Positions 1-45,105 of a DNA stretch of 64,000 nt are shown piece after piece (position 1 is the first letter of the stretch; every line of letters begins with the position of its first letter). The stretch lies in contig OY760175.1 of NCBI GenBank assembly GCA_963663165.1, positions 6,336,001 to 6,400,000 on the forward strand, given 5' to 3'. Under the pieces are notes generated by a model, which worked only from the letters and a program-made list of their open reading frames with translations, searched no databases and had not been told where the DNA came from. The DNA comes from an uncultured Desulfospira sp. (GTDB lineage Bacteria; Desulfobacterota; Desulfobacteria; Desulfobacterales; Desulfobacteraceae). A program made the translations under genes and the position numbers.

Positions 1-1379
1 TTTATTTTCCAATTCTCATATTCTGAAGGTCGCAACCGGTAACGGGCAATATTGCCTTCATGCAGGCCTATCAATTCCGTTTCGACAACTTCAACAAAAC
101 GCTCCCTTTCTTTTGACTCAATTTTTTCAATTGCACATTCTTTTATGTAAGACACAGCCATCTTTTTATTCATGCCGTCACGCACAACATTATTTACAAC
201 ATTGAAAATGGTTGCACGATGGCGAAGCCGGAAAGGATCTGGCTCCCCAAGTGAACTGCGGACAGCTGAATAGCGGTCGCAAGAACGCTCATATGCCCAT
301 ATAAAAACATCCCTGAGCAACGCCACTCTATTCAGTTCATATACCCCCATTAGCCCGTCAACATAAGCTTGTTCAGGCACATCTACAAATGAAAGTGGGC
401 ACAAATTATCTCGAATAAGGGGAATGTTTGCAGATAGGCGTGAAACCCTCTTGTTCACATCCTCGAATGGCTGGAGATACGGCAAATGAACCATCGCAAA
501 AAAAGCCTGTTCGAATGGGTTCTCTATTGCAGTGGCTTTCTCAAGCACTTGCGAAAAAGACTCTTCTATCCGCTGTGGTACTTCCAAGGGTATATATACT
601 GTCCCACTTATTCCGACTGGGATGGCGCGTAACTTTCCGCAGGCCCTTGAATCAGCCAGCAGGTTGTCAGAGAGAAGCGCATGAAGATTGCAAATTGTAT
701 AGCTGTTGAACCCGACTTCCTGCGCCTGTTCCACCAATAGTTCGATAGCCGCTTTATGGTTCAGAATCATTTGTGATTCTATCGCCTGTTTGCCCTCGGC
801 GACCTCTCCAAATTCAAGCAAACGATCAGTTTCAAGCAAAGAGTAAGTATTGCCCTCTAGACGGCTTGAATTCCATGACAGATCAATTAAAACACGATTA
901 AATACCTTGCGTGCATAGGTTCCGGCCGGCCTATGACCATCCGACGATTGGCCCTTTTCAAAAAGGCGCCGGCGAATCTCAAGAGAAAGGTAAAAGGTTT
1001 TATTAGGAATATACTCATCGATAAACCTTTGGTTATACCCGACAGGTTGACGGTTCTGAATCGGTTGGCGGACTACCTGCTTTATTTTCTCTCCCTCCCG
1101 GGAGACGGGAATATAAACCTCGCCATGAGACTCTAATTTAAGAGAAGGAAGCTTGGCATCTAATCCTGCTATTGCTTTCACAACATACCTGCTACTGCGT
1201 CCCCTGCCTTTTAAAATTAACTTCTTCTGTCCAACAAGGTTACTGAGACGGCGTTGCAGAGTCCGACGGGATAATTTTTCCATGACAATGCTGATATCTT
1301 TTATTGAGGCACCCTCAGGGAATTGACCAACGGCTTTCAGAACATCATCTAATTCATTTTGTGGTATATACTTTGGCAT
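1..1379 (-). CDS. Fic-domain protein with N-terminal HTH-like region; 3' end runs off the window
   Basis: Not in the ORF track (no stop codon in window). Manual translation from ATG 1379: MPKYIPQNE...LSRRTLQRRLSNLV...PAGTYARKVFNRVLIDLSWNSSRLEGNTYSLLET...YLQPFEDVNKRVSRLSANIP...HEGNIARYRLRPSEYENW. Contains a variant Fic motif and an SxxxEG/N inhibitory motif. Confidence 0.88.
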   Translation of the reverse strand, partial: MPKYIPQNELDDVLKAVGQFPEGASIKDISIVMEKLSRRTLQRRLSNLVGQKKLILKGRGRSSRYVVKAIAGLDAKLPSLKLESHGEVYIPVSREGEKIKQVVRQPIQNRQPVGYNQRFIDEYIPNKTFYLSLEIRRRLFEKGQSSDGHRPAGTYARKVFNRVLIDLSWNSSRLEGNTYSLLETDRLLEFGEVAEGKQAIESQMILNHKAAIELLVEQAQEVGFNSYTICNLHALLSDNLLADSRACGKLRAIPVGISGTVYIPLEVPQRIEESFSQVLEKATAIENPFEQAFFAMVHLPYLQPFEDVNKRVSRLSANIPLIRDNLCPLSFVDVPEQAYVDGLMGVYELNRVALLRDVFIWAYERSCDRYSAVRSSLGEPDPFRLRHRATIFNVVNNVVRDGMNKKMAVSYIKECAIEKIESKERERFVEVVETELIGLHEGNIARYRLRPSEYENWKI

Positions 1380-1385
1380 GATAAC

Positions 1386-1457
1386 TATATGGCACATTTT
1401 CTATAATTGCGCCATATTAATTTTTATATGGCGCAATTATAGAAAATGTGCCATATA
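1386..1457. promoter_or_regulatory. Perfect 32-bp inverted repeat with 8-nt spacer, immediately upstream of the Fic gene; candidate operator
   Basis: tatatggcacattttctataattgcgccatat (1386-1417) and its exact reverse complement (1426-1457). Confidence 0.7.
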
Positions 1458-1725
1458 AAAACAGGTGATAAAAGATCGACTATTGCCGACACTCAACAAA
1501 AAAATGCTGAATTTCGGGGACACGAGACAAAATTAAAATCGGCTTGCCAATATTTTTGTATCGTGTCCGTATGCCGTAACAGCTGTAATTCTGACCGGTT
1601 GAAGTCCTGTGGGAGAAATTGTCCGTACACCTCTTTAGCACCGGGAAGCAGCGTCTGGGTAACCAAAGGAAAGGGACCCTACTGTGTTCAAGCCACTAAC
1701 AAACGGAGGATCAGGAGATTGCAAT

Positions 1726-2030
1726 ATGCTATTAACTCCGGATAGAATCAGGACGCTTCAGAGGAAGCTTTATTGTAAAGCCAAGCAGGAACCGGATTTC
1801 CGTTTTTATTCTTTTATATGAAAGTCTCACTAACGTCCTGAGAAGACTTTCAATATTTGTTGTGGGCGGCTCTTGGTTGGATAACCAAAGCGGCCCGTGG
1901 CCGTTATACGACAAGGTCTATCGGGCAGATATCCTTGGTCATGCCTATTGCCTTGCCCGGGCTAATAAAGGTGCACCTGGAATAGACGGTGTCAGCTTTA
2001 AGTCCATAGAGAAGGATGAAATTGAGGTTA
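1726..2030 (+). pseudogene. ltrA: Group II intron reverse transcriptase/maturase N-terminal fragment, interrupted and truncated
   Basis: [29 protein letters not shown] [91-bp insert] [36 protein letters not shown], the typical RT0 region. Similarity is lost after about 2030. Confidence 0.85.
1813..1903. mobile_element. 91-bp non-autonomous hairpin mini-element (family A), copy 1, inserted in the RT
   Basis: Deleting 1813-1903 restores TCT TTA TAC GAC AAG (SLYDK). 1812-1907 matches the reverse complement of 45010-45105 with 7 differences in 96 nt. Confidence 0.85.
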
Positions 2031-2232
2031 GAAGTCCCCGGCAACTGCCGAGGACGTTTCTTAATCAGTGCTCTACTCTACCCCGAATTCTGCTACCCCG
2101 AATTCTGTCCCCCGAATTCGCGCTACCAGAAGCAATAGTGGTCATTCAGCGAGCCATACTCAACATATTGAACAGGTCCGTTTTTTGGATGGCCTTGCCC
2201 CGGACTTTTTTTGTTTTCTATATCCAGTCTTA

Positions 2233-2272
2233 AATCTTGCTCCCGACTGTGGATTTGAGCCGGAGCAAGATT
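2233..2272. repeat. AATCTTGCTC...GAGCAAGATT hairpin repeat (family C), copy 1
   Basis: 11-bp arms; the same arms and an internal ATTTGAGC recur at 30708-30761. Confidence 0.6.
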
Positions 2273-2342
2273 AAGGGCAAGAGTATGAAAAAAAGGTCAA
2301 TTCATCGGCTGGAGGCTGTAATTCTTTGTTATCACGCAGCAA

Positions 2343-6806: not shown

Positions 6807-6866
6807 ATAACGGCCACGGGCCGCCTTGGTTATCCAACCAAGAACCGCCCACAACGAATAATGAAA
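6807..6866. repeat. Family A mini-element, partial copy
   Basis: ataacggccacgggccgccttggttatccaaccaagaaccgcccacaacgaataatgaaa matches the start of 45010-45105, then diverges. Confidence 0.8.
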
Positions 6867-7061
6867 CTGAAGATACCAGCAACGGTAGACTATAAATTGG
6901 GCACCGCAGGTGCTTCGCCCTCTTGTCTCTTGTCTCCAGTTTCTTATAAAAAGGCAAAACAAAAGCTGATTCCTTTGTTTTTTTAAGCGTTGATACGGGT
7001 TTGGGATTGGATAAAACCATATGGTCCGGCTTGCGGCCTTTTTTTTGCAATTGTTCACGGT

Positions 7062-29652: not shown

Positions 29653-29707
29653 ATAACGGCCACGGGCCGCCTTGGTTGGATAACCAAAGCCGTCCGTGAC
29701 GGTTTAT
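29653..29707. repeat. Family A mini-element, short near-palindromic form
   Basis: ataacggccacgggccgccttggttggataaccaaagccgtccgtgacggtttat. Confidence 0.7.
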
Positions 29708-35292: not shown

Positions 35293-35422
35293 ACGGTCAT
35301 ACCTTTAAGGGCAGAAACCGGACCGTCTTTGGTTATCCGGCCAGGCAGCGGACACAAAAAAAAATGAAAGTTTTTTCAGAACGTTTGGCAGCGATTTCAT
35401 ATGAAACTTCAGGACATCAATC

Positions 35423-45009: not shown

Positions 45010-45105
45010 ATAACGGCCACAGGCCGTCTTGGTTATCCAACCAAGAACCGCCCACAACAAATAATGAAAGTCTTCTCAAGATGTTAGTGAGACTTTCATA
45101 TAAAA
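45010..45105. mobile_element. Family A mini-element, full-length copy 2 (opposite orientation to copy 1)
   Basis: Reverse complement of 1812-1907 with 7 differences. Confidence 0.85.

Follow-up and report, generated by a model that had tools for sequence, protein, structure and literature searches.

The 91-bp insert in a group II intron reverse transcriptase (RT) fragment of an uncultured Desulfospira sp. is very probably a gene-less derivative that keeps both ends of an IS110 element, and its sequence suggests that it would be copied in trans by the resident DEDD recombinase and guide RNA, or by a close sister of them. The original prediction, made on the 64,000-nucleotide stretch analysed here (the window), was right in seeing a non-autonomous element with defined ends that is moved in trans. 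The genome under study is designated G000 and its sister genome, assembled in two contigs, G001; the features are listed in Table 1.

The insert is real. Deletion of 91 bp from position 1813, 1814 or 1815 restores the reading ...FRFYS-LYDKVYR, and RT homologues are uninterrupted at the junction, with F-x-x-LYDK in five of the eight intact loci listed and the exact SLYDK in one of these five. The TT overlap that makes the borders shiftable by 2 nt is present, and we reinterpret it as the recombination core (AA in element sense). On both strands the fold of this copy (copy 1) beats 200/200 shuffles (z −4.3 and −3.7). The subterminal hairpins described earlier are conserved, but the minimum-energy fold of copy 1 lacks one of them, cggcc-cgt-ggccg, and has a longer left-end hairpin in its place. 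A search of the window against Rfam gave no match. No intact paralogue of the intron was found in G000 at the DNA level, and window positions 1443–2342 are absent from the orthologous place in G001, so that copy 1 is without a direct empty allele; none was seen in the contigs of four sequencing runs either. Short repeated ends of the RAYT-flank type (window 1500–1570 and 2030–2125) bracket and truncate the intron remnant. A 465-aa ORF with its flanks (window 1–1442) sits elsewhere in G001 (C1:4379616–4381057), which suggests another mobile unit.

Table 1 Coordinates of the miniature unit and its parts, of further copies in the window and of the partner IS110 element (window positions unless a contig is named)
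Feature	Position	Strand	Remark
Miniature IS110-type unit, 91 bp	1813..1903	-	1815-1905 if the 2-nt core is assigned to the left end; reads in element sense on the minus strand
Left target with AA core (TATAA, element sense)	1904..1908	-	Matches 3′ strand of the resident IS target loop; core at 1904-1905
Left-end terminal 8 nt (5 variable nt and A(C/T)G)	1896..1903	-	First C matches post-core base of the target guide
Left-end hairpin	1864..1896	-	Length and sequence vary among subfamilies, pairing kept
Internal left-end box CACAACNAA (element sense)	1856..1864	-	Identical to donor-loop 5′ strand of the guide RNA
Left subterminal inverted-repeat arm	1844..1852	-	
Right subterminal inverted-repeat arm	1819..1827	-	16 nt from left arm; arms 1.7 kb apart in parent-type IS
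Right end with AA core (CATATA-AA)	1813..1820	-	Matches donor-loop 3′ strand; resembles target too
Group II intron RT gene 5′ fragment, host of the unit	1726..2029	+	Truncated at about 2030
Full 91-bp copy	45014..45104	+	Orthologous G001 site empty
Complete 139-bp variant with A run	6811..6952	+	Other sequence between repeat arms; orthologous G001 site empty
Two left ends head to head through hairpin	29657..29702	.	No box, no right end; same place in G001 holds a different subfamily's double left end
Degenerate copy, ~110-bp subfamily	35293..35402	+	
IS110 element, three copies	G000:C1 4130994-4132741, 4366462-4368204, 4960274-4963905		Third copy interrupted; one partial left end in addition

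The unit belongs to a large family of mini elements (minis). The full-length copy proposed near 45010–45105 was confirmed at 45014–45104, with an empty orthologous site in G001. The supposed half copy at 6807 is instead a complete 139-bp variant (6811–6949 plus an A run) whose G001 site is also empty, and the near-palindromic form (29657–29702) consists of two left ends joined head to head via a hairpin and lacks a right end. A fifth copy, at 35293–35402, is degenerate. Instead of the roughly four copies first proposed, nhmmer returned 325 matches (E<0.01) in 236 clusters genome-wide. BLAST across G000 gave 303 pieces, 230 of them near-full copies, and a strict pattern matched 203 times in G000 and never in the reversed control. 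Minis occupy at least 26 kb of G000; long ORFs, which on both strands together cover 81% of the genome, contain ten of the 236 clusters. With a generic pattern, minis were found in 56 of 90 genomes of the same family and 4 of 60 genomes of other families (0 control matches). Unit length runs from about 60 to 154 nt, 91 nt being the commonest (156/334 units), and the units, in element sense, start after TAA and end with TTTCATATAA and an A run.

Empty sites, sought in 1.6 Mb of G001 and among paralogous repeats, yielded 27 orthologous and eight paralogous filled/empty pairs, three sites being common to both lists. One unit plus one or two A's had been added in 18 of the 27 orthologous pairs; the remainder differ by 0, +3 to +5 or −5, mostly with diverged flanks or arrays, and the sole pair with 100% identical flanks shows +1. 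No duplication beyond the 2-nt AA core was seen at empty sites of either kind, in agreement with the insertion without true target duplication proposed earlier. The proposed ATAA target held in part: three flanking bases are near-invariant (227, 224 and 222 of 230 aligned copies), but the next positions vary and ATAA is not fixed, the 109 non-tandem target sites including TATAA (35), ACTAA (38) and AATAA (19). Neither a right-flank consensus nor a replichore bias (112/229, p 0.79) was found among the minis. A runs are longer in arrays than in single copies (mean 3.0 vs 2.2, p 0.008), a difference expected from insertion of copies into one another's right ends. Minis in opposite orientation also sit inside the CACTAA of another mini (G000:C1 2956173, 3693244, 4169304 and 1732780), where clean comparison with the empty site of the host mini gives additions of +1, +1 and +2, and one AT-rich site carries independent insertions in opposite orientation a few bases apart (G000:C1 6261200 vs G001:C1 about 3011430). 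Targets include at least three other high-copy intergenic repeat families in G000 (for example C1 3651132 and 2380588).

A scan for orphan ends returned a single left-type orphan that leads into a long repeated element, the 1743-bp IS110 element. The longer copy with the same ends that the original prediction had suggested seeking exists, and as the sole such element it encodes the enzyme named there as an alternative, an IS110 DEDD recombinase. This 419-aa protein scores above cut-off for Pfam DEDD_Tnp_IS110 and Transposase_20 and for NCBIfam NF033542, its DEDD residues and catalytic serine are intact and align with those of IS621, and the best structure matches of its model are IS621/ISCro4 (E 7.5e-14). 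The nearest named protein records come from Desulfobacteraceae and other sulfate reducers. Assignment to the IS110 family is supported by the RuvC-like DEDD domain together with Transposase_20 and its serine, by recombination at a 2-nt core without target duplication (one or two extra A's differ between sites) and by a non-coding end with a two-loop RNA that matches target and donor. The recombinase model (L046:676–1932) has a helical insertion (model residues about 160–210) and a C-terminal helix, both absent in IS621; from the model, the two are candidates for binding the repeat stem or hairpin.

The IS and the minis share one end plan: core AA, 5 nt, A(C/T)G, hairpin, box and ATGAAA, then TTTCAT, ATA and core AA. 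The IS ends read core AA, five bases, ATG, a small hairpin, the CACAAC box and ATGAAACACT on one side and AGTGTTTCAT, ATA and the core on the other. The long hairpin of the mini corresponds to the subterminal repeats of the IS, with all but 16 bp between the arms deleted. IS copies adjoin minis and form mixed IS–mini tandems (G000 and loci of the G005 and G077 type), and some minis of relatives have a left end identical in every base to that of the IS (L225, L226). With resident IS110 ends, no recombinase gene, many copies and polymorphic sites, the minis have the hallmarks of a MITEPpu9-like derivative. They occur in 15 of 16 IS-positive genomes of the family and 41 of 74 others, a comparison in which kin are not independent and the IS search may not span all 90 genomes. 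Beyond ATGAAA the arms of the minis diverge from those of the resident IS, which is therefore not their direct parent. No IS110 or guide RNA match was found in G001 (213 pattern matches, including copies 100% identical to copy 1) or in G013 (one contig, 67 pattern matches), both near-complete assemblies, and the same holds for several further mini-rich genomes.

A fourth IS110 match in G000 (L107) has unrelated ends and was rejected as the partner. The contigs of four sequencing runs showed no IS circle junction, a 90-bp mini back-joint in the runs is accounted for by genomic tandems, and the RNA runs contain only small shares of IS sequence. L188 (G005:C3 about 505000–505560) is a guide-only element with a left-end box, a whole guide RNA and a right end, but no recombinase; in L293 and L301, full IS110 homologues, the right end is followed directly by another left end, as in tandem or circle-type junctions. 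Contigs of runs X1 and X5 carry a second, slightly different guide-RNA sequence (L046:2026–2066), and in runs X4 and X7 the IS has a left flank (L046:561) not found in the G000 assembly; these possibly represent other organisms or newer insertions.

The 370-nt 3′ non-coding region of the IS contains a conserved two-loop RNA, which lies downstream of the recombinase gene here and upstream in distant relatives. RNAalifold recovered the inner stems only (12 pairs, six with double changes), and the outer stems were read by eye. The 3′ strand of the target loop equals the left target plus core: across ten distinct guides identity is 0.88 vs 0.37 for shuffled pairs, a value reached in 1/20000 shuffles (3.1 vs 1.6 of 5 in a first pass), whereas in a broad, automatically parsed set the test was significant at the 70% level only. 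The post-core guide base changes with the base that opens the left end, C going with C and T with T (L053, L093), a handshake-like match when set beside IS621/ISCro4. The resident guide also predicts how arrays stack. The G000 guide AATAT-AA-C predicts stacking without an extra A, and the G005 guide ATATA-AA-C, which has one A more, predicts one A; junctions without an extra A (+0) make up 34 of 58 in G000, 15 of 29 in G001 and 0 of 28 in G005 (Fisher 1.4e-8 for G000 vs G005), where the tandem register is +1.

The 5′ strand of the target loop, compared with the right target, gave 0.47 vs 0.44 (4192/20000) and matched nothing else tested, so that no IS621-type guide complementary to the right target was detected. 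This is in line with half-match insertion, which the available part of a recent study reports for IS621 (10.64898/2026.08.31.748434). ACTAA targets (38/109 in G000, 0/32 in G001) do not fit the resident guide. Sister guides ending in ACT occur in the family (L268, L271) and not in G000, where a search for extra guide-RNA copies, with 150 of 1211 candidates scored, found only the three IS copies; the ACTAA targets require a sister guide since lost from G000.

In the donor loop, the 3′ strand reads as the right end, with an identity of 0.83 vs 0.52 for shuffled pairs (n=20, 0/3000). The 5′ strand has the sequence of a box that lies ~20 nt inside the left end, flanked by the left-end hairpin and the repeat. 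Among homologues below 60% protein identity, box and 5′ strand agree at 0.77 vs 0.50 when shuffled (n=27, 0/10000), and below 52% at 0.76 vs 0.53 (n=14, 0/10000); slid registers give 0.38–0.47 and the reverse complement 0.32–0.38 over both sets, and 0.38–0.44 and 0.33, respectively, in the set of 27. When the loop is picked by its right-end match alone, box identity is 0.79 vs 0.52 (n=14). The rule was freed of box choice by using loci with a single upstream ATGAAA, which kept 92 of 172 and left out 43 without ATGAAA, 25 with several, seven with no N-terminus and five with no loop candidate. Noisier earlier parsers gave weaker values in the same direction, single linkage at 55% left n=8 with 573/20000 shuffles reaching the observed value, and all covariation statistics refer to dereplicated sets that are not tree-corrected. 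In homologues from other phyla, box and RNA change together (CACAAC, CAGCCA, CACCCATG, ACAAATTAG). Of 334 gene-less units, 333 retain the box at 17 nt from the repeat, the pattern itself allowing 16–18.

By contrast, a guide of the IS621 type, complementary to the core and terminal left-end bases, was not detected (0.47–0.49 vs 0.42 shuffled, 304–1006/5000), and the five terminal left-end bases vary freely among minis. In IS621, according to the accessible part of its description, the bases immediately inward of the left end are the complement of the second donor guide (PMC11208160). This IS110 group thus likely reads its own DNA unlike textbook bridge recombinases. What appears to be new is the correspondence of the donor-loop 5′ strand to an internal left-end box and not to the complement of the terminal bases, an assignment made on sequence comparison. 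Standard covariation pipelines, which seek complementarity beside the core, would miss a guide displaced in this way. The literature searched, with figures and bioRxiv supplements outside its scope, gave no description of the mini repeat family or of an internal-box donor guide; Extended Data Fig. 10c of PMC11208160 or the RNA figure for CazIS110-1 could already show such a layout.

How the donor is presented to the RNA is less certain. The terminal 8 nt and the box are separated by a spacer of 10 to 51 nt, which keeps its pairing where it is long. Left-end hairpins remain paired among subfamilies (0.79 vs 0.60, 19 types), and the repeat extension changes in sequence while its pairing is kept (0.83 vs 0.61, 14 types). 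Together, the displaced box, the compensating hairpins and the 60–150-nt units suggest a folded single-strand donor. We therefore propose, tentatively, that a cross-phylum IS110 clade (~410 aa) may read a folded single-stranded donor in which the repeats pair and both donor-loop strands lie on one DNA strand, at the right end and at the box past the left-end hairpin. Such a fold would free the terminal bases from guide control and let dumbbell parasites of 60–150 nt reach hundreds of copies per genome across the family. Single-strand copy-out or circles are reported, in the available portions of the two studies, for CazIS110-1 and IS621 (10.1101/2025.10.25.684509; 10.64898/2026.08.31.748434). 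Pairing between close hairpin arms can also be kept by template-switch homogenisation without selection.

A plain duplex donor, with no single-strand fold, comes close to an even chance. The lack of replichore bias agrees with it, as do the 10-nt spacers without a hairpin in the relatives L230, L232 and L233 and the arms of the full IS, which at 1.7 kb apart are harder to pair in a single strand. In the accessible text on ISPpu9, mutation of a similar left-end palindrome (A box) left circles intact, so that the palindrome is dispensable there (PMC12288879). Against a duplex donor stand the spacers, which vary from 10 to 51 nt and yet keep pairing when long. DNA stiffness disfavours duplex looping of very small units, and units of 60–90 nt are very small for it. 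Moreover, the two strands of the donor loop are both identical in sequence to a single DNA strand, an arrangement incompatible with a plain duplex read by a canonical loop.

The identity of box and RNA might instead reflect something other than donor pairing, such as regulatory RNA–RNA or antisense contacts, the donor being read by the right-end guide and protein contacts. In the closest homologues the seventh position of the box changes without a matching change in the RNA, and half-match chemistry could make a second guide dispensable. We consider this unlikely, since the box keeps a fixed register and its counterpart keeps a donor-loop position opposite the right-end guide across phyla; the near-constant box-to-repeat distance in the gene-less units points the same way, partly by construction of the pattern.

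The mover named in the original prediction was an IS200/IS605 element, in which an HUH Y1 transposase or a RAYT uses end hairpins as guides for peel-and-paste movement. The units do insert 3′ of a short AT-rich motif and produce no duplication, but IS110 elements insert likewise. Hairpins are found at either end, 175 of 334 units have a TA(W)T tetranucleotide ahead of the right hairpin, and Y1 and RAYT genes are present in the genome. In IS200/IS605 elements a guide tetranucleotide 5′ of the end hairpin pairs with the cleavage site, and insertions are biased in orientation to the lagging-strand template. Here the guide tetranucleotide fits 1 of 70 units outside the genus, replichore bias is absent, and none of the 14 Y1/RAYT matches carries these ends, which belong to the IS110 element and match its RNA. 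This reading is largely refuted and very improbable. Movement as integron-like empty cassettes or attC sites by a tyrosine recombinase, or as IS91-type rolling-circle products, is hardly credible: units do end in G-TTA on one strand and form mixed arrays, and the genome holds 71 tyrosine-recombinase and eight Y2 matches, but the base before TTA at empty sites is not a fixed G, insertions add one or two extra bases, no matching inverse core pairs span the unit, the proposed cores are unpaired in the folds, and the ends are common to IS110 and its RNA. As partners, the 71 tyrosine recombinases were rejected for want of shared ends and the eight IS91 Y2 matches because they are without these ends, a single right-end-like match inside a coding region being due to chance. 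Separately, an IS200-type TnpA element is inserted in a RAYT-like gene of G000 (C1 804960–805705; L011, L021).

Among small mobile elements, the non-autonomous IS200/IS605 elements and REP/REPIN sequences are likewise small, hairpin-rich, high in copy number, mostly intergenic and free of target duplication; the minis differ from them in having the ends and target of an IS110 system and no Y1 partner. IS110 miniatures themselves are already known, MITEPpu9 being, in the accessible content of the literature searched, the sole published precedent (PMC12288879). As far as its available description goes, MITEPpu9 (the ssr9 module of ISPpu9 in Pseudomonas putida KT2440) is gene-less, copies IS110 ends, adjoins its IS, forms minicircles and tandems, and has a 2-nt core at both ends and a short palindrome 8 nt inside the left end (PMC12288879). 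It has eight copies, an sRNA cargo and a REP target, and the accessible text does not describe a guide-to-box match (PMC12288879). The minis show such a match, number about 300 copies, carry no cargo, have radiated across the family and form self-targeting arrays.

With IS621/ISCro4, as described in the available sections of PMC11208160 and PMC13626964, the partner shares the DEDD and Tnp-serine residues, a two-loop RNA, a 2-nt core and guides equal to left target and left donor. It differs in its 419 aa, with a mid-protein insertion and a C-terminal extension (18% identity in the structure alignment), in an RNA placed downstream (upstream in distant relatives), and in having no detectable right-target guide. 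The second donor guide corresponds to the internal box, not to the complement of the terminal right donor as in the accessible account of IS621 (PMC11208160). The IS1111 group (ISEc11, ISKpn4, ISPa11), so far as the available portion of PMC11187229 describes it, likewise has a long 3′ non-coding region (370 nt downstream of tnp here), subterminal inverted repeats with 3 nt beyond the right repeat and 7 nt before ATG at the left, and a bottom-strand match as the 3′ strand of the loop. Yet 11–13-bp repeats at distances of 7 nt (left) and 3 nt (right) from the ends are not found as such: the right arm lies 3 nt inside, whereas the long left arm of 10 bp lies about 31 nt inside, behind hairpin and box, with ATG alone at 7 nt. 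In addition, the protein is ~80 aa longer and the RNA is upstream in many relatives (compare PMC11187229). The nearest named IS among full-length protein matches is the ISArsp3 family (PLSDB annotation; 33% identity), compared by protein alone.

We then propose a model for the spread of the minis. The IS recombinase and guide RNA would act in trans on the minis, with the RNA pairing to the bottom strand at the left target, the right end and the box. The target loop would read the left target and core, and recombination at the AA core would add 91 bp. The target would be read in its left half only (half-match), leading to loose targets, WMTAA preceded by pyrimidines; and since the element's right end would itself be such a target, copies would stack in tandem arrays. 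The register of an array would be set by the resident guide, and later collapse or slippage may leave extra A's. In the least certain step, which we offer with reserve, one strand would fold so that the inverted repeats pair and the box and right end face each other in a bubble; this bubble would be read by both donor-loop strands, and the left-end hairpin, lying in the turn, would absorb any extra spacer. The position of both donor-loop strands on the same bottom strand would be geometrically possible if the strand folds.

Bridge recombinases are under development for genome editing, and there is open dispute over their donor: whether it is one strand or two, whether it is cut or copied, and whether the match is full or half. 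The clade described here has a guide layout with the second donor guide ~20 nt inward and no right-target guide, with covariation across phyla. Its minis provide thousands of natural substrates of 60–150 nt, whose variation maps the dispensable parts; if the folded donor holds true, they would be the smallest natural substrates of bridge recombination. A dominant, apparently undescribed repeat family of sulfate-reducing bacteria may thus be explained as self-targeting RNA-guided parasites.
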